Positions 1-20,599 of a stretch of 64,000 nucleotides of DNA are shown in pieces. Source of the stretch: an uncultured Candidatus Saccharibacteria bacterium (GTDB lineage: Bacteria; Patescibacteriota; Dojkabacteria; GCA-002793355); NCBI GenBank assembly GCA_964525295.1, contig CAZGEO010000001.1:248662-312661 (forward strand), read 5' to 3'. Numbering within the stretch: position 1 is the first letter of the stretch; each line of letters starts with the position of its first letter. The translations under genes were made by a program, and so were the position numbers. Below the pieces are notes generated by a model. That model did no database searches. It worked only from the letters and a program-made list of their open reading frames with translations, and was not told the origin of the DNA.

Positions 1-1953
1 TCTAAACAAGGTAATTTGCGATGCACTCTGCGGATCGACTGCAATTGATATAGCACGCGACTTCTTGTCATTTTCTGCGGTATTTATTTTCTCGCCAAGA
101 TATACATTAAAGTACGGTGGATCATTATTTTCTTTCACAATTTGTGAGGGAAATGCATAACTCAAGTGAGTAACTGTAATGATAACCTCTTCATTATGAT
201 TGCCTAATTGAAATGTGCCTCGCGCATCAGTAACCAAGGTTTCAAGTAATTTCGAATTATCTGAAGCAAGAAGTACCCTCACGATTGCTCGAGATATAGG
301 TTTTTTGGTAAGTGAATCATACACAATACCGACAATATTCTTTTCTGCAGTTCTTGCCATCGAGAATAATGGATATAGAAGTCTATAAGCAAAATCTGCA
401 CCAAATAATTGAGTCGCAACTGAAACCGCACCCGCTTGAAACTTTCCGCCTGGTTTTCCAGCCAATAGAGCAGAGAAGCCTCTAATTAGTCCATCTAAAC
501 CGACTAAAATTACAATACCAGCAGAAACAATTGTTTGTTCCTCAGTAAATGTTGTTGTGGTATTTGCAGGGGGAACTGGAGAAGTGATAATTGGTGTAGT
601 TGGAGGAACATACGGAACACCGCTCGTTGGTTCAATTTCATCTGAAATGTGTGGCGTCATATCAAACAACGTAACACTCGGTGTTACCGAAGTAGTAACT
701 GAAGGCGTTACACTTGTCGTAGCTACAATTGACGTTGAGACAGTTACCGAAGGCGTTATTGTTACTGTTGCGGTTGGTGTGCCCGTTGACGTGACGCTTG
801 GCGTATAAACTATCGTGGACGTTGGCGTGATTGTTGGTGAAGGTGTCGCAGTTGGCGTTATGGTTGGGGTATCAGTCGGAGTGTCAGTTGGGGTCGCAGT
901 AGGTGTATCGGTTGGGGTATCAGTCGGAGTGTCAGTTGGAGTCGCTGTCGGCGTATCGGTCGGAGTTGGAGTAACATCATCACCATAATTTGCAAAAACA
1001 TTTATTCGTGCCTGACCAGACTGCGAAATGAGCACATTTCCTGAGGGAAGAACAAGAACATCAGCGGGTTCATCAAATTGCTCAGGATCTGTACCCCAAA
1101 CTCCCCAATGGGTAATGTACGTTCCGTCACTGCTAAACTTAATAACGAAATCTGTTGAATATTCGGTCGTATAGATATTATCGTTCTCATCAATGCCCAT
1201 TCCAACTGCGGTATAAACCTCATCAGGATTATTCTCATAGCCTTGGATAGACCATTGTGTTTGATAAGTAAAATTCGAATCAAATTTTTGAACACGCGCA
1301 TTGTCGTCACTAACGTAAATATTTCCAAGAGAATCAATCACAATTCCATTCGGAAAATTGAATTGACCGGCGCCACTTCCAGTGGCTCCGTAGGTATTTA
1401 GTAAAGTTCCCGCACTTGAATATTTTTTTACTCGGTGATTATAAGAATCAGCAATCCAAATATTACCTGCAGAATCTGTTATTACATCCCAAGGACGATT
1501 TAATCCTGCCGTAATTGTGACTAAACGATTAAAATTTGAATCATAAACTAAAACCGAACCTGCATTCAGGCCAATACAGGTATTAGTAACGTAAATTCGA
1601 TCGAGTGAATCGACCCACATTCCTTTTGGACAGTTGATATCTGCATCTGAATAACTGGTAATAAAAGCTCCTGAATCAGAAAATACCCGAATCTCATGAT
1701 TATCTCCATCAGCAACAAAAATGTTTCCACTACTATCAACGGCCAATCCCCAGGGGGTAGACCATGAATCTCCGCCTTGAATGGTGCTCCAATTCGAAAC
1801 AAACTGCGCAGCAAGTACACTTCCTTGTCCTATCTTTTCTTCTATTGGATTTTGTGTGAATGTTTTAGATGTCACTAAAAGCGAAAATGCGAGCCCAACA
1901 GTCAAAATGAGGAGAGTTATAACGACACCTTTCTTTCTACCTTGATTTAACAC
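1..1953 (-). CDS. Secreted NHL-repeat beta-propeller protein (partial; C-terminus lies beyond the window start) with Thr/Pro/Asp-rich linker and a C-terminal carboxypeptidase-regulatory-like segment
   Basis: My own translation of the minus strand gives the N-terminal region ...RKKGVVITLLILTVGLAFSLLVTSKT (signal-peptide-like) followed by repeated NHL-type motifs (YNHRVKKYSSAGTLLNTYGATGSGAGQFNFPNGIVIDSLGNIYVSDDNARV). Positions about 560-1000 encode a PTDTPTDT... low-complexity linker. Positions about 190-260 encode LETLVTDARGTFQLGN, which resembles the CarboxypepD_reg fold. The probable start is GTG at about 1953 and there is no in-frame ATG. The gene is not in the ORF track because it runs off the window edge. 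Confidence 0.6.
   Translation of the reverse strand, partial: MLNQGRKKGVVITLLILTVGLAFSLLVTSKTFTQNPIEEKIGQGSVLAAQFVSNWSTIQGGDSWSTPWGLAVDSSGNIFVADGDNHEIRVFSDSGAFITSYSDADINCPKGMWVDSLDRIYVTNTCIGLNAGSVLVYDSNFNRLVTITAGLNRPWDVITDSAGNIWIADSYNHRVKKYSSAGTLLNTYGATGSGAGQFNFPNGIVIDSLGNIYVSDDNARVQKFDSNFTYQTQWSIQGYENNPDEVYTAVGMGIDENDNIYTTEYSTDFVIKFSSDGTYITHWGVWGTDPEQFDEPADVLVLPSGNVLISQSGQARINVFANYGDDVTPTPTDTPTATPTDTPTDTPTDTPTATPTDTPTDTPTITPTATPSPTITPTSTIVYTPSVTSTGTPTATVTITPSVTVSTSIVATTSVTPSVTTSVTPSVTLFDMTPHISDEIEPTSGVPYVPPTTPIITSPVPPANTTTTFTEEQTIVSAGIVILVGLDGLIRGFSALLAGKPGGKFQAGAVSVATQLFGADFAYRLLYPLFSMARTAEKNIVGIVYDSLTKKPISRAIVRVLLASDNSKLLETLVTDARGTFQLGNHNEEVIITVTHLSYAFPSQIVKENNDPPYFNVYLGEKINTAENDKKSRAISIAVDPQSASQITLFR
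557..1000 (-). repeat. Low-complexity coding repeat (Thr/Pro/Asp/Val-rich linker; core PTDT tandem about 841-975)
   Basis: Direct nucleotide repeats (ggtatcagtcggagtgtcagttgg recurring). The + strand frame gives the GVTxxV artefact ORF 557..808, and the minus strand encodes the PTDT repeats. Confidence 0.7.
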
Positions 1954-4873: not shown

Positions 4874-7207
4874 ATGATTACAGGAGACCTTATATTTGTT
4901 GGCATACTAATTGTCGCATTATTTTCCGTTGGAGGTGGAGTATATCTTCATGATAGAAAATCCTTTACTGCTAGGTTCTTTTTAGCCTTAGTAAGTTTCA
5001 TGGCCATATGGTTACTTTCCAACTTTCTCTCAAACTACGTAAAAAACGAATGGCTCGCAATTGCCACAAATAGACTCATCTTCACATCAACAACCTTTGC
5101 AATCTGGCAATTATTAATATTCACAAAAAACTACCCAGAAAGGGGAAATATTGTTACAAAGAGATTTTTCTGGATTTCCTTAGTTCCAACGATTTTAGTA
5201 GGAATAATTGGGCTAACTCCATTAATTGTGGCAGGAGTACAAATTAGGGTTAGCTATTCAGAAATAATCTTTGGAACTGGCATTTACGCGTATATCGCCC
5301 ATATTTTATTTTGTCTCGTCCTATATGTTTGGGTTCTTATTCAAAAAGCGCGAACACTTCAAGGAATTGACAAGGCTAGACTTCAATACTTGTTTACAGG
5401 GTTAACAATCTCAACCGGAGGTATTTTGTTAACCAATTTAGTAATTCCAATTTTCTTTAACAACTTTGTACTAACCAATATAGGTCCGGCATTTCTTTTG
5501 CTTTTCGTTGGGTTTACTGCATTTTCAATTATCGAAATTCGACTCACCGGTATCCGCAACCTATTATTTCAAATTACCAATCTGCTAATATTGGGTCTAC
5601 TACCAGTACTTGCATTTTACCTCACACGTTACTTGTCTAAAATTAATTTCATTCATGCCGACGCAACAATAGAGTTTGCTCTAATTTTTGTTATCATGAC
5701 AGGTTCTTTCTTACTAATCTCAAAGAGTATCTCCGTTGTTAGGAAATTTCTGCAAGGTGACTTAATGAGCACAAGTATAGAATTAGAAAAAATTAAGAAT
5801 TCATTTTCGAGTCGAATTAGCACTGAACTTGATCTAAAGAAACTCAGTAAGTTGACTTGCGATATCATAAGAGAGACAGTCGGAGTTACTGATATCTCAA
5901 TAACGTTATTGGATCTTGAAAATAAATCCGTGATTTCACACGTCAACGAAGGATTTAAAAAAGCAAATATTGTACCTGAAGAATTACTTACATTTACAAC
6001 CTACTGGAGGCGCCTACATGCAGGGTATGTGCTAGTGCGAGATGAACTTGAACACCTCGACGAAAGTGAACTAACAGACTTAATGCGTCATGCACTTGAA
6101 TTTTTGAAAAAACACAGTATAGCAATCATGATTGCTTTAAACGGAAGTACACAAACCCACGGATTCATACTAATTGGAGAAAAGATAAATTTTAATGCGT
6201 ATACCTCGGAAGAAATTTCTTTTTTGACTGCGATTATAGCGAACAATGCTTCTGTGGCAATTTCAAGAGCGTTACTATTTGAACGCCAAAAATATTTTAA
6301 TTCAGAATTAAACGAAAAGGTTAAGCTCAGGACAAAAGAGTTAGAAGCTGCGAAATTATCACTTGAAGATAAAAATATTCAGATTAGAAATGCATATCAC
6401 GAACTGAAAACACTAGATAACGCAAAATCCGAATTCATCTCAATTGCTTCACACCAATTGCGTACACCGATCTCTATTATTAAGGGCTACCTTTCAATGA
6501 TTCTAGAAGGTGATTTCGGTAGCATGCCTGAACCTCAACTTATCGCACTTCACAAAGCTTCTGATAACATCCAACAGTTGAACGATATTGTAGAGGATAT
6601 TTTGAACGCCTCGAGAATTGAAAGAGGGAAAATGGCAATTTCTCCAGATAGAACAGAGATTATCGAATTAGTCAGAAATGTAGTTGAACAACTACAACCC
6701 AAGGCTGATAAAAAAAATCTTACCCTAACATATAAAGGTTCTATTAAAGAATTCACAACTTTGGCAGACCGCAATAAGATCTACGAGGTTATTATCAATC
6801 TTGTTGATAACGCATTGAACTACACGAAAGAGGGAAGTGTTACAGTAATAACCGACAACACTCCAGAAGGTGACCTACTCATAATAGTTAAAGACACAGG
6901 TATTGGTATTCCAGAAACATTCAAAGATAAAATGTTCCAACGCTTCAGCCGATCTGATAATGCAAAATCCGTTAGGCCCGATGGAACTGGTATTGGGTTA
7001 TATGTTGCGAAATCCTTTATTGATGCTCATCAAGGCCAAATTTGGTTTGAAAGTACTGTAAATGTAGGAACGACATTCTTCGTGAAGTTACTTAAGAATC
7101 CAGTTTTTCCTGCTGCACCAAGTGAAGAGACAACCCCAGAAACGAAAATTATTGAAGCAAAAAAAATTGCAAAGGAGACAAAAAAGAGACACCGTCAACC
7201 TCAATAA
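4874..7207 (+). CDS. Sensor histidine kinase: multi-TM N-terminal sensor, GAF/PAS-like middle, HisKA plus HATPase_c
   Basis: About 8 hydrophobic helices in the first 300 aa. H-box SHQLRTPISIIKGY. ATPase motifs NLVDNALNYT and GTGIGL. Lys-rich C-terminal tail. Confidence 0.8.
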   Translation: MITGDLIFVGILIVALFSVGGGVYLHDRKSFTARFFLALVSFMAIWLLSNFLSNYVKNEWLAIATNRLIFTSTTFAIWQLLIFTKNYPERGNIVTKRFFWISLVPTILVGIIGLTPLIVAGVQIRVSYSEIIFGTGIYAYIAHILFCLVLYVWVLIQKARTLQGIDKARLQYLFTGLTISTGGILLTNLVIPIFFNNFVLTNIGPAFLLLFVGFTAFSIIEIRLTGIRNLLFQITNLLILGLLPVLAFYLTRYLSKINFIHADATIEFALIFVIMTGSFLLISKSISVVRKFLQGDLMSTSIELEKIKNSFSSRISTELDLKKLSKLTCDIIRETVGVTDISITLLDLENKSVISHVNEGFKKANIVPEELLTFTTYWRRLHAGYVLVRDELEHLDESELTDLMRHALEFLKKHSIAIMIALNGSTQTHGFILIGEKINFNAYTSEEISFLTAIIANNASVAISRALLFERQKYFNSELNEKVKLRTKELEAAKLSLEDKNIQIRNAYHELKTLDNAKSEFISIASHQLRTPISIIKGYLSMILEGDFGSMPEPQLIALHKASDNIQQLNDIVEDILNASRIERGKMAISPDRTEIIELVRNVVEQLQPKADKKNLTLTYKGSIKEFTTLADRNKIYEVIINLVDNALNYTKEGSVTVITDNTPEGDLLIIVKDTGIGIPETFKDKMFQRFSRSDNAKSVRPDGTGIGLYVAKSFIDAHQGQIWFESTVNVGTTFFVKLLKNPVFPAAPSEETTPETKIIEAKKIAKETKKRHRQPQ

Positions 7208-7313
7208 TTTTGCAAAGGATACAAGTAACGGAAATTTAGGAGCTATCAATATTGGGACTAGCGTCTTACAACAATCTAACCACTTACAGAAACACCTGGT
7301 AAGGCATTACTTC

Positions 7314-7850
7314 TTATTTCTGTCGAATAGCCATTTGTATGCCTGTCACAACCGCAATTCGCATATCCAGACGTTCTTCTGCGTTCCGTGGAGCAATCAA
7401 TACTGGTTCGGTAATTTGTTTTCCAGTCTCAATGTCAACTTGTGACTGCGATGCAGTATGAAGTGTCAACTCTCGTTTATCCTCAGATAAACTCAATCTA
7501 TAAACTGTACGAGTCCATGGTCCTTTTTTAGGAAAAAGTTTTAAACGTGTCGGGGTCTCATCTTCCGTTAATTGCATATCGTACCCACCTTCTGGTAAAT
7601 GCACTATATCCCATTTTCTTCTTACCAAGAACTGCCCGAAACGATTATATTCATCAAACGGTTCACCATGAAACCCACGTTTACGATTACGTCCATCTGC
7701 CAATACAGCTAGCTGAGCAACTTTTTCTGGATAATAGCCAGATAAATCAATTTTTAGGTCTTGAGGATCTAGTTTTGGATCATCATCGAATTCTCTTTGC
7801 AACCTGTAAGTCAATCTTCCAAAAGCTTGTATCATACGGTATTTTACCAC
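7314..7850 (-). CDS. Hypothetical protein (178 aa)
   Basis: Longest ORF in this region with ordinary protein composition. It overlaps two shorter + strand ORFs that I judge spurious. Confidence 0.4.
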   Translation of the reverse strand: MVKYRMIQAFGRLTYRLQREFDDDPKLDPQDLKIDLSGYYPEKVAQLAVLADGRNRKRGFHGEPFDEYNRFGQFLVRRKWDIVHLPEGGYDMQLTEDETPTRLKLFPKKGPWTRTVYRLSLSEDKRELTLHTASQSQVDIETGKQITEPVLIAPRNAEERLDMRIAVVTGIQMAIRQK

Positions 7851-8037: not shown

Positions 8038-8601
8038 ATGGCACAAACCGATCAAATCAAGAAAAACATGTTTATCATGTATAACAACGAACCATATTTC
8101 ATAACTGATGCAGAGTTTTATTCGCCGGGCAAAGGATCAGCATTTACTCGCGTGAAAATGAAGAACTTAAACACCAGCCGTGTCATTCCTTTCACCTTCA
8201 AATCAGGGGAAAGAGTAGAAGAGCTAGAGGTTATGTTCAAAACAATGCAGTATCTTTATGCAGATGACAACAATGCAACCTTCATGGACCCAGAAAGTTA
8301 CGAACAATACACAATATCTCTCGACATTATCGACAACTTCATCAATTACATGAAAGCAGGAAGTGATTATATCTTAATCATTTATGACAACAAGCCAATT
8401 TCTATCAAATATCCGCCACAAGTGGTACTAGAAATCACCGAAACTTCAGCAGCCGTAAAAGGAAATACTGCAAACAGCGCAACAAAAGAAGCTGTTGTTG
8501 AAACAGGGGCAAAGGTTCAAGTTCCAATGTTCCTAGACATCGGGCAAAAAATCAAAGTAGATCCAGTAACTGGGTACTATATGGGGAAAGCAACTGAATA
8601 A
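8038..8601 (+). CDS. efp: Elongation factor P
   Basis: SPGKGSAFTRVKMKNL matches the EF-P KPGKGxAFxRxKLKNL loop, and the modifiable Lys is present. Confidence 0.9.
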   Translation: MAQTDQIKKNMFIMYNNEPYFITDAEFYSPGKGSAFTRVKMKNLNTSRVIPFTFKSGERVEELEVMFKTMQYLYADDNNATFMDPESYEQYTISLDIIDNFINYMKAGSDYILIIYDNKPISIKYPPQVVLEITETSAAVKGNTANSATKEAVVETGAKVQVPMFLDIGQKIKVDPVTGYYMGKATE

Positions 8602-8699: not shown

Positions 8700-11228
8700 T
8701 TATAATTGTTTAGCGATATCTCCCAACATTCTTTCAACTCTTAATTCATAAAACCGTACAACTCTTGGGAATTCTTGTGAATATTTACGCTTAAGTAGCT
8801 CAAATTTATTCGTTATCAGTGATTGTTCTTTAGCCGGATCGAATGTAAACAACCAATTTGTATCTACAAAAAATTCGCGCGCTCGAACAGGTAACTCCTC
8901 ACGATAGAATGAATTCAAAATTTCAGCATAACCGCTCCTGATTTCATCAGTTAATGGCGAATGACGTTCGCGTACTGCCCAAACATAAAGTGACAGAAAC
9001 AATTTCATCTCAGGTGAGGTTTCTAAATCACCATATTCTCTTAACCCATCTAAAAATGCTTCTGTATCGATTTTTTTATCTAGGTAAGTGTCACAATATA
9101 TGTAAAAAGCGTGCAAACGTTCGCTAACTCTTAAAAAATCTTCTTTTGAGAATTGCGAATACAACGAATCCCAAAGATAGCCCCAATAAGGAATTACCTG
9201 TTCATGCTCCCGATATCCTGCAAGCGATTTTTGTGGTAAATTTTCATGCATAAACCTAAACCCAACACCGAACCTCTCGCGTAAGTAAACTTCATTCTTA
9301 ATTGCATTGAGCTCTTCTTTTGTTTGTGCTGAAAAGAGTAACATAGAGTAGTAGTGAAAGGGTGATTCTAACCCTTCAGGAGGCATATCCAGACGAGGTG
9401 ATCTTTTTCCCGAGGACAATTTCAATAAAGTACCTGTAACTTCAAGAAAAAGCTCTGCTTCTTCGAATTTTCCTTCCCTAATTAACCCTGTGACTTTTGC
9501 AATATGTAGCTCGGACATTGAATACATAAGGTCGGGATTCTTTTCTACAGGCAAGCCTTCTTGCCATTGCCTTCCGATTATATATATGTCACTTACTTGA
9601 GCAAAAATATGTTCCTTTTTTGGGCCTTCTGGCATCTGCCATAGTGCAAGAGCAAAATTAATTTTTTTCAAAAAATCTTCATCAGCAATTTCGGCAAGAG
9701 CAGTTAAATCGCCAGTTTCCAAGTACTGTCTTACCGCCCTAATACTTGGTAATTTTTTCATTTCGAGATATTCTTCAGATAAAAACTGAACCTTAGGTTT
9801 AGGGTCATTAACAGTCATATACTCTGGTAATGATGGCTCGAATTTACTATATTTCTCAATTAACAAAGATCTCTTTAGTTGGCGTTCTTCAGTTTCGGGA
9901 GTATCTTTTGCGTAAAATTCCCATAAAAGATCTGATACTACAAAAGCGAATTCATAATTGAAAATTGGAAGCAATACAGCCATATTTTCTAATGCTTCTT
10001 TATTGAGAACATTTTTTTGCATCAAATCAGCAAAAAATTCTGAAAAAAAGATTTTTTGATTGGTGGCCATTTGGCGAGAATTGTAATCTCGTACATCTTG
10101 ACGTCGAAAATGAGTTACAAAAGCTAAAGGTGTCATGCCACGTTCGGCAGTTAATAAATCAAAAAGTATTGCTTTTCCTGCTTGAGATCTAGTTAAAGTA
10201 CCAATATTTCCCATTCTATCTACTGCTTGTTCGCAGTCTTTGAGCTGCTCAAACATTACAACATCAGCGAAATCTGCTACTCCAAATCGAGAATTTGTAA
10301 AACGATAAAGGTTCTGTCCATGAGTTGACCCCGCAGTATGAATCATTTGCTCCCGAAGCAACTCCCGCAATACAATTCCCATGTTGCGATAATCTACCTC
10401 TTTCAATGAAGCTAAAGACGTAAGGTTCTTCTCAGGGGAATAATACGTTTCAATAACAGGATATCGTTTAGAACTAGGTACGCATAATACTAACGTCGAA
10501 AGATTTGTTCCTTCATCATTATTCATCGCTTCCTTAACTTTTTCGCGCTTTTCTTTACTCATAAGAATCTCTTTTGTTTCTTGTAAACGAGAAGAAAGCT
10601 CAGGTAAACTAGTTACCGTTAAAGGAAAAGGAATCTCACTAGTAAGCACTTCTTGTAATGTATTAATCTCTGGATGCGCATGTAAATAGGAAGAAAATCC
10701 AAGTAATGTTTGAATATACTCATTCAAGGCAGCCTTTCTTGCTTGTGTACCGACAATTCGCATATTCAATCTTCCATCAGTCGGTTTCTCATGATAAAAC
10801 TTATCAGGGGTCGTTACCCCGACAGGAAACGCTGGTAGCAACGAATCGCGTGAATGACCATAGCTTAATGATCTAGCCACAGATCCGTTTCCCTTTAAGT
10901 AAAGCGTAATTTCTTGACCATTAACCATTATCTGTGATTGATAAATTCCTCTGCCTTCAACTTCATACGGCGCTTCAACAAATTCTCCGTTTTCATCTCG
11001 CTCATCACTAGTTTTACGTGCTGGTGTCAAATACGCCATTGGCTCAACTGCCTTTGCTAATTCGTAGATCTCTTTGATTAAATTTTTCTTTTCGGAAGGC
11101 AAGATTATCTCCAAATCCGCCTTTAATTCCTCAGGGGTAACTATCGCTAGCCGTTCCCCTGATTTCGCCTTTTCAATAAAAGTTAGCTGTGGCGAAGGTG
11201 GAATTGCTTGCTTTGATGCTTCGGACAT
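8700..11228 (-). CDS. Large (842 aa) protein with N-terminal atypical protein-kinase-like domain (possible pseudokinase) and a long alpha-helical C-terminal region
   Basis: EVEGRGIYQSQIMVNGQEITLYLKG resembles a glycine loop plus the beta3 Lys. GIVLRELLREQMIHTAGSTHGQNLYRFTN resembles the Kdo/RIO-type catalytic loop with the catalytic Asp replaced by Gln. VADFADV is a DFG-like motif. Confidence 0.5.
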   Translation of the reverse strand: MSEASKQAIPPSPQLTFIEKAKSGERLAIVTPEELKADLEIILPSEKKNLIKEIYELAKAVEPMAYLTPARKTSDERDENGEFVEAPYEVEGRGIYQSQIMVNGQEITLYLKGNGSVARSLSYGHSRDSLLPAFPVGVTTPDKFYHEKPTDGRLNMRIVGTQARKAALNEYIQTLLGFSSYLHAHPEINTLQEVLTSEIPFPLTVTSLPELSSRLQETKEILMSKEKREKVKEAMNNDEGTNLSTLVLCVPSSKRYPVIETYYSPEKNLTSLASLKEVDYRNMGIVLRELLREQMIHTAGSTHGQNLYRFTNSRFGVADFADVVMFEQLKDCEQAVDRMGNIGTLTRSQAGKAILFDLLTAERGMTPLAFVTHFRRQDVRDYNSRQMATNQKIFFSEFFADLMQKNVLNKEALENMAVLLPIFNYEFAFVVSDLLWEFYAKDTPETEERQLKRSLLIEKYSKFEPSLPEYMTVNDPKPKVQFLSEEYLEMKKLPSIRAVRQYLETGDLTALAEIADEDFLKKINFALALWQMPEGPKKEHIFAQVSDIYIIGRQWQEGLPVEKNPDLMYSMSELHIAKVTGLIREGKFEEAELFLEVTGTLLKLSSGKRSPRLDMPPEGLESPFHYYSMLLFSAQTKEELNAIKNEVYLRERFGVGFRFMHENLPQKSLAGYREHEQVIPYWGYLWDSLYSQFSKEDFLRVSERLHAFYIYCDTYLDKKIDTEAFLDGLREYGDLETSPEMKLFLSLYVWAVRERHSPLTDEIRSGYAEILNSFYREELPVRAREFFVDTNWLFTFDPAKEQSLITNKFELLKRKYSQEFPRVVRFYELRVERMLGDIAKQL

Positions 11229-11246
11229 ACGTTACTATAACAAACA

Positions 11247-12344
11247 ATGCTAGAATGCTCCAGTAAGATAAATCGAACAAAAATGAGTTTTTACAAACAA
11301 TTACTAAATAACACTAAAACAAAAGAGCAGTACCTTCTGAAATTGCAAGTCATTCGCGAAATTCGAAACTTTTTCGAAAAAAAGAAATTTTTAGAAGTTG
11401 AGCCACCAATTTTGAATAGCGCACTAATTCCCGAATCATATTTGGATATTTTTTCAACTGAAGAGAGAAGGGTAGGGCTAGAAGGAAAAATTGCCCGTCA
11501 GATGTATTTAATGACCTCACCTGAGGCATTCCAGAAGAAATTACTTTCCGCAGGTTTTGGAAGCAATTTTGCAATCACCAGAAGCTTCCGAAACGGCGAG
11601 CCATTATCAGGTAAGCACCTAAGTGAGTTCTCGATGCTTGAATGGTACGAAAAGGGTAGTAATTATCGCGATGTCATGGTAACTACCGAACAATTATTTT
11701 CTCATCTTGCCAAGGCGATTAACGGAAAAGGCATAAAAACAATCGAATATAAGGGAGTTACTGTCGACCTAACACCACCATGGGACCGCATATCAGTCAA
11801 TGAACTTTTCAAACGTTTTCTTTCGATAGATTTGGAAGAATCTTGGGACAACGAGCGACGTGCTTTTTCTGTGAAACTTTTAGCAAATATCGTCAAGACC
11901 ACCGGATTACCGATTGCAATAGAAGAGTCGAATACTTGGGAAGAAATTTATAATCAATTGTTTCTAACCTACATTGAACCAAATTTGCCAACAGAAAAGC
12001 CTGTTATCATTTACAATTACCCGCACGAGCTTTCTCCTCTTGCTAAACCAAAAAATGGTTCTCATGCCGAAGGGAATGTTTGGGCAGAACGATTCGAAGT
12101 AATGATTGCGGGGCTTGAAATTTGCGATACTTACACAGAAAATACCGATGCGCGACTACAAAGCACCTCATTTAAGCGTGAGATTGCAAAGATCGAGGCC
12201 GATGCAACAAAAACACAGTACCCCTATGACTGGGAATTTGTTGAAGCTTTAGAACACGGTTTGCCAGCCTGTAGCGGAAATGCCCTAGGAATCGATAGAG
12301 TTGTGATGCTTTTCGGCGGTTTTGAAGAAATCCTTGAGGCATAA
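11247..12344 (+). CDS. epmA: EF-P-(R)-beta-lysine ligase (PoxA/GenX), class II LysRS paralog
   Basis: MYLMTSPEAFQKKLLSAGFGSNFAITRSFRNGE...HLSEFSMLEWY and the C-terminal PACSGNALGIDRVVMLF align closely with E. coli EpmA. The biological start may be the internal Met at 11283 (MSFYKQ), because 11247 lies only 18 bp from the divergent neighbouring start. Confidence 0.8.
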   Translation: MLECSSKINRTKMSFYKQLLNNTKTKEQYLLKLQVIREIRNFFEKKKFLEVEPPILNSALIPESYLDIFSTEERRVGLEGKIARQMYLMTSPEAFQKKLLSAGFGSNFAITRSFRNGEPLSGKHLSEFSMLEWYEKGSNYRDVMVTTEQLFSHLAKAINGKGIKTIEYKGVTVDLTPPWDRISVNELFKRFLSIDLEESWDNERRAFSVKLLANIVKTTGLPIAIEESNTWEEIYNQLFLTYIEPNLPTEKPVIIYNYPHELSPLAKPKNGSHAEGNVWAERFEVMIAGLEICDTYTENTDARLQSTSFKREIAKIEADATKTQYPYDWEFVEALEHGLPACSGNALGIDRVVMLFGGFEEILEA

Positions 12345-12518
12345 AACTTCCTGGCATTACGGCCTTACAACAATATTTTCTTACTCTAACATTTTGCCTT
12401 TTACATCTTTCTTGCTTTACTGCTTTACTGCTTTATCGCTTTATCGCTTTAAAACTGTATCAAATCCCGTACACTGAACATTGAAAATTAATAATTAACA
12501 ATTATTGTATAATCAGTA

Positions 12519-19465: not shown

Positions 19466-20599
19466 TTATTCACTCACTGGATGAAAATCTCGATGGGTGT
19501 CTTCAGCAAACTTATCGCTTGTATGTACGTAACGTGTGGTAGTTTGAAGACTTTCATGACCTAAAAGCACTTGAATTGCCGCAGGATTCGCACCATTTTC
19601 AGCAAGATACGTTGCGTATGCATGGCGAATGCTGTGAGCGCTCATAGGAACAACAATTTCGAGCATTCTGCGATAAAATGCAATTTTCATTTGCACATAA
19701 TTCGTTGAAATTCTCGGATCTGAACCCTTTAATCGGCTACCGCTAGTTGGCAAAAATAAAGCAGGGTAGGGGTCTGCCCTCTTTTCTAGGTAACTTTTTA
19801 TATGTGCGACTGCCCTATGCGTTAAGTAAACAAAGCGCTGTTTTCGACCTTTTCCTGTGATAAATAACTTTCCATCGCTGTTAATTTGATCACGATTAAT
19901 ACTCACTACTTCGGATATACGCATGCCTGTTGCTAAAAGAAGTTCCAGAATTGCCCTATTTCGAAGAGCAACTATCTCTAGCGATTCATAATTGCTAGGA
20001 GCTTCTACAAGAGCAACAACTTCTTCAAGTGTTGGTACCTGTGGTTTCTTCTTTGGAACCCTCACCAGCTGAACTGCATCAGGCGCAAGTGGAGTTTCAT
20101 AATCGTACTCAACTAAAAATCTCAAATAATTTCTCAGCGAGACTAAAACTCTGTTGATTGACATGGCATCTAACACTTCAGGGTTATTATTCTTCACAAA
20201 GCCCCCATTTGGCGTTTTTACATGGAGTAAAGAGTCGTTTTTCTTCTTCTCGTTTGTTTTTGAGGCGTTTTTATCAATTACAACGATATTCTCGTCATTA
20301 CCTGCACCTTTCTGTAGCATTTCCCCTTCTGGTTCTTTATTTTTATTGTCTTGACGATGAACATGCTCACGTTGCTTCAACCAACCTTTAAAAAAAGTAA
20401 CTGAAAGCTTATTTATTGACTTGAACTGTGTTTTGGTATCTTCAAGGAATTCCGCAAAAAAGCTGAGATCTCGATTATAATTGTAAACTGTTTCATTACT
20501 GTAATTGTTATTGAACAAATGAAGCATAAACTCATTTTGACGCTCAAGTTTCGGCATCTTCTCGTCTTTTAAGAGCTCTTGTATGTTAATTTTCCTCAC
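19466..20599 (-). CDS. Tyrosine recombinase, XerC/XerD family, with Lys/Asn-rich insertion in the N-terminal domain
   Basis: The C-terminal catalytic region ATGMRISEV...AHSIRHAYATYLAENGANPAAIQVLLGHESLQTTTRYVHT carries the R..H..R..Y catalytic residues. Confidence 0.8.
   Translation of the reverse strand: MRKINIQELLKDEKMPKLERQNEFMLHLFNNNYSNETVYNYNRDLSFFAEFLEDTKTQFKSINKLSVTFFKGWLKQREHVHRQDNKNKEPEGEMLQKGAGNDENIVVIDKNASKTNEKKKNDSLLHVKTPNGGFVKNNNPEVLDAMSINRVLVSLRNYLRFLVEYDYETPLAPDAVQLVRVPKKKPQVPTLEEVVALVEAPSNYESLEIVALRNRAILELLLATGMRISEVVSINRDQINSDGKLFITGKGRKQRFVYLTHRAVAHIKSYLEKRADPYPALFLPTSGSRLKGSDPRISTNYVQMKIAFYRRMLEIVVPMSAHSIRHAYATYLAENGANPAAIQVLLGHESLQTTTRYVHTSDKFAEDTHRDFHPVSE

Follow-up and report, generated by a model that had tools for sequence, protein, structure and literature searches.

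The 64,000-nucleotide stretch analysed here (hereafter, the window), positions 248,662 to 312,661 of contig CAZGEO010000001.1 of an uncultured bacterium of the Dojkabacteria, carries an open reading frame (ORF) for a protein of 842 amino acids (aa), ORF842. The gene lies on the minus strand between efp, which encodes elongation factor P (EF-P), and an epmA-like gene, and its product is predicted to contain a highly divergent protein-kinase-like (PKL) domain. The three genes are placed as follows.

8700..11228, minus strand: complete coding sequence of ORF842, stop codon included, given by the ORF list, by the identical protein on three contigs and by the full-length homologue P0002.
8038..8601, plus strand: efp, on the 3' side of ORF842 (TIGR00038, E = 1.8e-63, above the curated cutoff).
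11283..12344, plus strand: epmA-like gene, a class II aminoacyl-tRNA synthetase catalytic core without the anticodon domain (TIGR00462, E = 4.4e-78).

The reading frame of ORF842 is uninterrupted in the window, and the protein occurs in identical form on three assembled contigs, the longest of which is 659 kb. The GC content of the gene is 0.376 and that of the window is 0.383, and no compositional anomaly at ORF842 was found in this comparison. The maximum Kyte-Doolittle score over 19 residues was 1.58, and neither a hydrophobic segment nor a signal-peptide-like N-terminus was found when these were looked for, which bears out the remark in a first-pass annotation of this DNA, made by a model from the letters, that the protein has no obvious secretion signals. 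The product would be a soluble protein of two domains. Scans for promoters and terminators gave results at or below the shuffled expectation.

ORF842 matched no Pfam family at E ≤ 1 except for a chance match to GBP, and no relevant match was found in NCBIfam, PADLOC, PHROGs or the PDB sequences. Searches of the PDB with the ORF842 sequence and with profiles of the family alignment also gave nothing relevant. A defence-system component was rejected on the empty PADLOC search, and a phage protein was rejected on the empty PHROGs search and the lack of a close relative in IMG/VR.

To determine the family, 1.84 billion cluster representatives were searched exhaustively with phmmer (HMMER) at a cut-off of E ≤ 1e-3, which gave 31 proteins including ORF842 itself, and hence 30 relatives. 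The closest homologue, P0002, is a full-length relative of 841 aa with 31% identity (E = 1.6e-83), and twelve further relatives were found at E ≤ 1e-10. Most members are 600–900 aa long, and the alignable part corresponds to about residues 90–600 of ORF842. The members looked up were singletons or near-singletons, called 'hypothetical protein' where the source gives a name, and the sole organism name among them was 'Patescibacteria group bacterium'. Word-index homology searches, whether started from the ORF842 protein or from the family alignment, gave nothing beyond the query, and no close relative was found when GTDB genomes, JGI metagenomes and IMG/VR were scanned with the ORF842 protein; alignment A2 proved too divergent to be of use in scans for loci, and a scan with the subgroup alignment A5 gave one additional family locus. 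The family is genuine but very rare and unannotated, and it is so far known only from Patescibacteria and metagenome contigs.

Conservation was computed on an alignment of the 31 family representatives, ORF842 included. Seventeen columns are invariant (E91, G92, R93, G94, Y110, G113, G115, R157, G160, P202, R255, H303, Q305, N306, Y308, D319 and D322), and all of them lie between residues 91 and 322. The kinase-like motifs quoted in the first-pass annotation are present at residues 92–98, 107–113, 295–312 and 317–323, and 11 of the 17 invariant residues fall within these 39 residues (hypergeometric P = 4.9e-12), which indicates that the quoted motifs are not a chance pattern. The conserved elements, in the order of the protein, are given below.

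10947..10958, minus strand: E91-G-R93-G94 loop between predicted beta1 and beta2, at the position of the glycine-rich loop; invariant in 31/31, the Arg included.
10884..10901, minus strand: Y110-L-K112-G113-N-G115, which closes predicted beta3 and contains the Lys that is the candidate for ATP binding; Y110, G113 and G115 are invariant and K112 is found in 29/31.
10719..10760, minus strand: R157-x-x-G160 ... E170, running into predicted alphaC, with the candidate alphaC Glu; R157 and G160 are found in 31/31 and E170 in 30/31.
10305..10328, minus strand: S301-T-H303-G-Q305-N306-L-Y308, the catalytic-loop motif without Asp; H303, Q305, N306 and Y308 are found in 31/31 and S301 in 30/31.
10263..10274, minus strand: D319-F-A-D322, a DxxD motif at the DFG (metal-binding) position; both Asp are found in 31/31.

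K112 ends the predicted strand 105–112 and E170 lies within the predicted helix 164–184, and the two residues form a candidate Lys-Glu pair. N306 and D319, which are 11–13 residues apart with short strands between them, correspond to the metal-binding Asn and the DFG-position Asp of the PKL fold. Three Arg residues are invariant, namely Arg93 in the glycine-rich loop, Arg157 and Arg255. The positions of S301, H303, Q305, N306 and Y308 are not acidic in any of the 31 sequences, and the Asp of the canonical HRD motif is absent from the loop.

The first-pass annotation had stated that the catalytic Asp is replaced by Gln and had proposed to look at whether this Gln is conserved in homologues. Gln305 is found in 31/31, and no homologue has Asp or Glu at the conserved loop positions, so that the loss of the acidic residue stands. 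The register behind the statement is doubtful; it equates HGQ with HRD and has N312 for the Asn. Because N312 is not conserved and N306, directly after Q305, is the sole invariant Asn, either Q305 or S301 may occupy the position of the catalytic Asp of PKA.

The predicted fold was obtained using AlphaFold2, which was run template-free on the family alignment with a depth of 31 sequences. The full-length model has a predicted local distance difference test (pLDDT) value of 81.2 and a predicted template-modelling (pTM) score of 0.85, and the model of residues 1–480 has values of 86.8 and 0.90, respectively. Two domains are distinguished in these models.

9819..10976, minus strand: PKL domain, about residues 85–470, predicted from the AlphaFold2 models and from the Foldseek matches in the PDB and BFVD.
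8703..9818, minus strand: C-terminal all-alpha-helical domain, residues 471–842, from DSSP of the AlphaFold2 model; poorly conserved, and possibly like tetratricopeptide repeats (TPR) at its end.

In the predicted N-lobe, strands are found at residues 88–91, 94–102 and 105–112, where the EGRG loop lies between the first two and Lys112 closes the third. An insertion follows, and then the long helix 164–184 with Glu170. The next predicted elements are the strands 201–207 and 243–250, with a helical hairpin between them, and helices in the region of 265–292. Short predicted strands flank the S-x-H-G-Q-N and A-D-x-x-D motifs, which would form the catalytic and Mg loops (residues 301–322), and the helices of the C-lobe continue to about residue 460. 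These secondary-structure elements follow one another as they do in a protein kinase. According to DSSP, the model is helical from residue 347 onwards except for two isolated bridge residues, and there are no invariant columns in this part. The description of the C-terminal part as helical thus agrees with the model; its only matches, to TPR or designed helical-bundle proteins, are insignificant.

The comparison of the domain model with the PDB using Foldseek gave 448 matches at E ≤ 10, and the best 50 of these, to which the following statements refer, are all kinase-fold proteins. The list is headed by ERK2 (E = 6.4e-3) and SidJ (9.4e-3), followed by IRAK4, Pto, FGFR, RET and choline kinase. 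The highest Foldseek probabilities among them belong to SidJ complexes (7mis_A, 0.91; 7pqe_C, 0.92), and 7pqe_C also has the highest query TM score (TMq), 0.31. The full-length model matched ERK2, haspin, the Legionella lipid kinase MavQ and LegK7. In BFVD, the best 50 matches are mostly kinases, of the Ser/Thr type from giant viruses, together with some fragments of nidovirus replicases. The kinase-like reading of the N-terminal part in the first-pass annotation, which had named Foldseek as one of its checks, is therefore supported by the template-free model and by the best matches in two libraries, though these matches are weak (E 0.006–0.1). On these models, residues of about 85–470 are a highly divergent PKL domain, and ORF842 is the founding member of a new and very rare family inside the known kinase-fold superfamily.

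Two groups of kinase-fold enzymes lack the HRD Asp and can be compared with this family. SidJ and SdjA are Legionella calmodulin-activated kinase-fold protein glutamylases, and SelO (YdiU, PF02696) represents AMPylating or UMPylating pseudokinases. In SidJ, Gln486 lies at the position of Asp166 of PKA, the pyrophosphate is held by Lys367 and by Arg352, which belongs to the glycine-rich loop, Glu381 pairs with Lys367, and N534, D542 and D545 bind two metal ions; the catalytic loop also contains about 48 inserted residues, which form a second, 'migrated' nucleotide pocket that includes H492, R500 and Y506 (PMC6858067). SidJ binds ATP in the same orientation as SelO and adenylates the substrate Glu (bioRxiv 10.1101/2021.04.13.439722). 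Pfam has no domain for SidJ (PMC10870513). In SelO, which has no HRD Asp, ATP is flipped, and Lys113, Glu136, Arg176 and Arg183 act on the gamma-phosphate (PMC8097203).

The active-site signature of the ORF842 family resembles those of SidJ and SelO when the residues are compared by analogy. With SidJ, it would share the absence of the HRD Asp, where Gln486 has a possible counterpart in the invariant loop residue Gln305. It would also share the Arg of the glycine-rich loop and the Lys-Glu pair (Arg352 and K367-E381 in SidJ, the candidates Arg93 and K112-E170 here), the Asn and DxxD metal site (N534, D542 and D545, compared with N306, D319 and D322) and the general build, a large protein with several domains and about 850 aa. 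The two differ in their host, which is a Patescibacterium here and Legionella for SidJ, and a calmodulin IQ motif is not expected in the ORF842 family. A sequence-profile search of the PDB with the family gave no SidJ match at E ≤ 10.

With SelO, the family would have in common the absence of the HRD Asp, the retention of the Lys, Glu, Asn and DFG-Asp, and extra conserved Arg residues. The N-lobe motifs are similar and have equal spacing, GDGRG...HLKGAG in Escherichia coli SelO and EGRG...YLKGNG here. However, SelO has HGVMNTDN as its catalytic loop where the family has SxHGQN, a helical C-terminal domain of 370 aa of the ORF842 kind is not present in SelO, and SelO is not among the best 50 Foldseek matches in the PDB. 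None of the 31 members matched PF02696. The lack of sequence homology to SelO and the missing SidJ loop insertion speak against placing the ORF842 family in either group.

Hanks-type Ser/Thr kinases share the overall bilobal fold, and the Foldseek matches are most often to ERK2, IRAK4, Pto and FGFR. Nevertheless, ORF842 leaves PF00069 and PF07714 unmatched at E ≤ 1, the HRD Asp, the GxGxxG motif and the APE motif are absent, and large insertions separate beta3 from alphaC and beta4 from beta5 in the model. None of the 31 members matched a Pfam kinase family at E ≤ 0.1, which excludes, at the profile level, ordinary kinases of the Hanks type and the pseudokinases derived from them, as well as the families of APH, choline kinase, RIO and Kdo. 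The Hanks-type pseudokinase families ActPs, GLW, CP1, DYD and DLHK, as outlined in PMC12599244, were rejected for want of a Pkinase profile match. The catalytic loop had been called Kdo/RIO-like in the first-pass annotation. This was not upheld, as ORF842 has no match to a Pfam kinase family at E ≤ 1; the Kdo/RIO-like reading was rejected, with PF06293 and PF01163 unmatched and the HxDxxxxN loop not found, there being no Asp in the loop.

The activity that these comparisons suggest is as follows. The cleft formed by Lys112, Glu170, Asn306 and Asp319-x-x-Asp322, which is highly conserved, is predicted to bind a nucleotide and Mg2+. The catalytic HRD Asp is missing from every member, with the S-x-H-G-Q-N motif in its place. 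Since the Lys, Glu, Asn and Asp residues are kept, the HRD Asp is lost and extra Arg residues are present, which is the signature of SidJ and SelO, we infer that ATP is most likely bound so that AMP, rather than the gamma-phosphate, would be transferred to the substrate. By analogy with SelO and SidJ, the outcome would be either the AMPylation of a protein or the adenylation of a carboxylate with ligation as the next step, and the helical residues 471–842 would probably hold the substrate. We consider it likely that these proteins form a new kinase-fold family whose active site is live. AMP transfer as the specific chemistry, which is drawn from the analogy, is put forward tentatively, at somewhat less than an even chance. 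The explanation as a whole, in which ORF842 is an active atypical AMP-transferring kinase-fold enzyme with an incidental placement between efp and epmA, is about evenly balanced.

Several observations weigh against this explanation. Two family members have no Lys at the beta3 position, one having Arg and the other Leu. No Foldseek match reaches E < 1e-3 (E 0.006–0.1), with template-modelling (TM) scores of 0.2–0.37 and large root-mean-square deviations. The catalytic-loop insertion of about 48 residues in SidJ is absent from all 31 members, as indicated by the adjacency of Q305 and N306 in each of them. The comparison of alignment A2 with E. coli SelO and with a SelO alignment using hhalign was not significant (probability 0.4%, E = 0.15); the N-lobe motifs were the only segment aligned, and the SelO alignment, built from a search with E. 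coli SelO, consisted of sequences that are all at least 79% identical. In addition, neither an experiment nor the gene context points to a substrate of ORF842.

Among the alternatives, the best-surviving one is that ORF842 is a genuine phosphotransferase, a protein or small-molecule kinase in which, for example, His303 or Asp322 replaces the HRD Asp and the gamma-phosphate is transferred. The fold and the set of Lys, Glu, Asn and Asp residues are those of kinases, and choline kinases are among the Foldseek matches (E 0.024–0.08). However, an acidic residue is found at no conserved catalytic-loop position in any member, the invariant Arg of the glycine-rich loop and the two further Arg residues make the pattern of the AMP-transferring SidJ and SelO, and there is no Pfam kinase match, APH, choline kinase, RIO and Kdo included. 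We regard a phosphotransferase as unlikely, yet worth keeping in view.

The next alternative is the one implied by the word 'degenerate' in the first-pass annotation, namely a catalytically dead pseudokinase that serves as a scaffold or allosteric regulator. It would account for the loss of the canonical HRD Asp in all members, and the large helical domain could serve as a platform for protein interactions. Yet the only invariant residues of ORF842 are at the predicted nucleotide and metal site, which is the opposite of relaxed selection. No part of ORF842 is better conserved than the putative active site, where Gln305 and its neighbours are retained in 31/31, so that the term 'degenerate' is contradicted, and an inactive protein is improbable. 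A slightly poorer prospect still is that the kinase-like fold is an artefact of the modelling and the search, and that the domain has another alpha/beta fold. The structural matches are all statistically weak (best E 6e-3, TM ≤ 0.37) and the model rests on an alignment of just 31 sequences, but the model confidence is high without templates, the best 50 matches in two independent libraries are almost only kinase-fold proteins, and the invariant residues have the succession of those in a kinase and lie in the elements of secondary structure where a kinase would have them.

The placement of ORF842 was compared with the corresponding loci of related genomes. A search of GTDB genomes with the EpmA-like protein gave relatives in Candidatus Dojkabacteria (WS6, Patescibacteria) with 62–72% identity. 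In three of the closest relatives (loci L012, L013 and L014), efp lies directly upstream of epmA on the same strand with gaps of 25–32 bp, and no homologue of ORF842 was found in the fetched stretches of these loci. The gene order of histidine kinase, efp and epmA, followed further on by a VCA0040-like gene and FKBP, recurs in the sister loci as in the window, and efp and epmA are also adjacent in three deltaproteobacterial loci. With these loci, the statement of the first-pass annotation that efp and epmA are normally adjacent or in one operon holds here. As the two genes travel together in the sister genomes, ORF842 splits an operon-like pair.

The 3' end of ORF842 faces the end of efp, and its 5' end is divergent from the epmA-like gene. 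The EpmA-like protein scores below both NCBIfam cutoffs for EpmA (262.8 against 286.9 for TIGR00462, and 234.2 against 264). The distance of 18 bp between the starts of ORF842 and epmA given previously refers to the ATG at 11247. The ATG at 11283, which gives a protein of 353 aa, is used by the gene callers, and the sister orthologues align from residue 2 of this version; with this supported start, the divergent gap is 54 bp. The EF-P of the window has a PGKGS loop with Lys32. Among the ORFs of the window with 200 aa or more, no CX3CX2C radical-SAM motif was found, so that none looks EpmB-like.

In other Dojkabacteria, the same junction holds different genes. Locus L015 has a 247-aa ORF at the efp-epmA junction (5203..5946, minus strand), and L011 has ORFs of 266 and 225 aa upstream of epmA (212..1012 and 1091..1768, both minus strand), none of which resembles ORF842 or any of the others. 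The junction looks like a hotspot of gene gain that is variable in Dojkabacteria. Neither efp nor epmA was found at any of ten other loci of the family, some of which were also searched with tblastn, and no recurrent neighbour was found either. The first-pass annotation had held that the placement is probably incidental if the gene is never linked to efp or epmA elsewhere, and the absence of such linkage (0/10 loci), together with the unrelated ORFs at the junction in two Dojkabacteria, speaks against a functional tie. Given also its opposite strand, the position of ORF842 is incidental, that is, a lineage-specific insertion and not a sign of a role in EF-P modification.

No target-site duplications or inverted repeats were found around the insertion. 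A 23-nt direct repeat with 78% identity (...CTTACAACAAT) occurs at positions 7253-7275 and 12352-12374 of the window, just after the stops of the histidine kinase gene and of epmA, so that its copies bracket a 173-aa ORF, efp, ORF842 and epmA; it is probably due to chance. The 173-aa ORF (7314..7835, minus strand), which separates the histidine kinase gene from efp, has no Pfam or NCBIfam match. In L012, L013 and L015, only about 75–90 bp are present at its position, so that efp has a lineage-specific minus-strand gene on either side. A tyrosine recombinase/integrase gene (PF00589) is located at about 19466..20557 on the minus strand (L001 672..1763), some 8 kb from ORF842 and beyond gyrA, and no link between it and the insertion was found. 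In another lineage of Patescibacteria (L017), a 152-aa ORF (7062..7520, plus strand) stands between epmA and efp on one strand, with its start overlapping the epmA stop, and the same arrangement is likely in L016. By eye, the 152-aa product looks like an acetyltransferase of the GCN5-related (GNAT) type, and it could be a real EF-P-related partner.

The gene of P0002 starts 7 bp after prmC in a string of L31, prfA and prmC (L002 6101..10526), with which it is probably co-transcribed. That ORF842 acts on the modification of the neighbouring translation factor, by modifying EF-P or controlling EpmA, so that its insertion would be functional, is very improbable: it lies exactly between efp and epmA and its closest homologue again follows a translation factor and its modifying enzyme, but efp and epmA occur at 0/10 other family loci, the sister genomes keep the pair without ORF842, unrelated ORFs take the same junction elsewhere, and ORF842, being on the opposite strand, is not co-transcribed with the pair. 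Translation genes are frequent chance neighbours in the small genomes of the candidate phyla radiation (CPR). With two cases in small genomes rich in such genes, the parallel between efp-epmA and prfA-prmC is treated as a coincidence, and a CPR-specific kinase-fold adenylyl-transferase or ligase that modifies translation factors, as the neighbours of the two closest members might hint, is hardly to be expected.

The position between efp and epmA is accordingly to be read as a variable insertion spot in Dojkabacteria, and ORF842 is not to be read as a new component of EF-P modification. For the putative active site, K112, Q305, N306, D319 and D322 are clear targets for mutation. Kinase-fold enzymes without the catalytic Asp but with a conserved nucleotide site are known to carry out AMPylation (SelO), glutamylation (SidJ) and RNA capping (NiRAN). 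The proteomes of Patescibacteria are largely uncharacterised, and their lifestyle depends on interaction with a host. From these bacteria, the ORF842 family would add an unannotated lineage to the Asp-less kinase-fold enzymes, which are known for unexpected chemistry.

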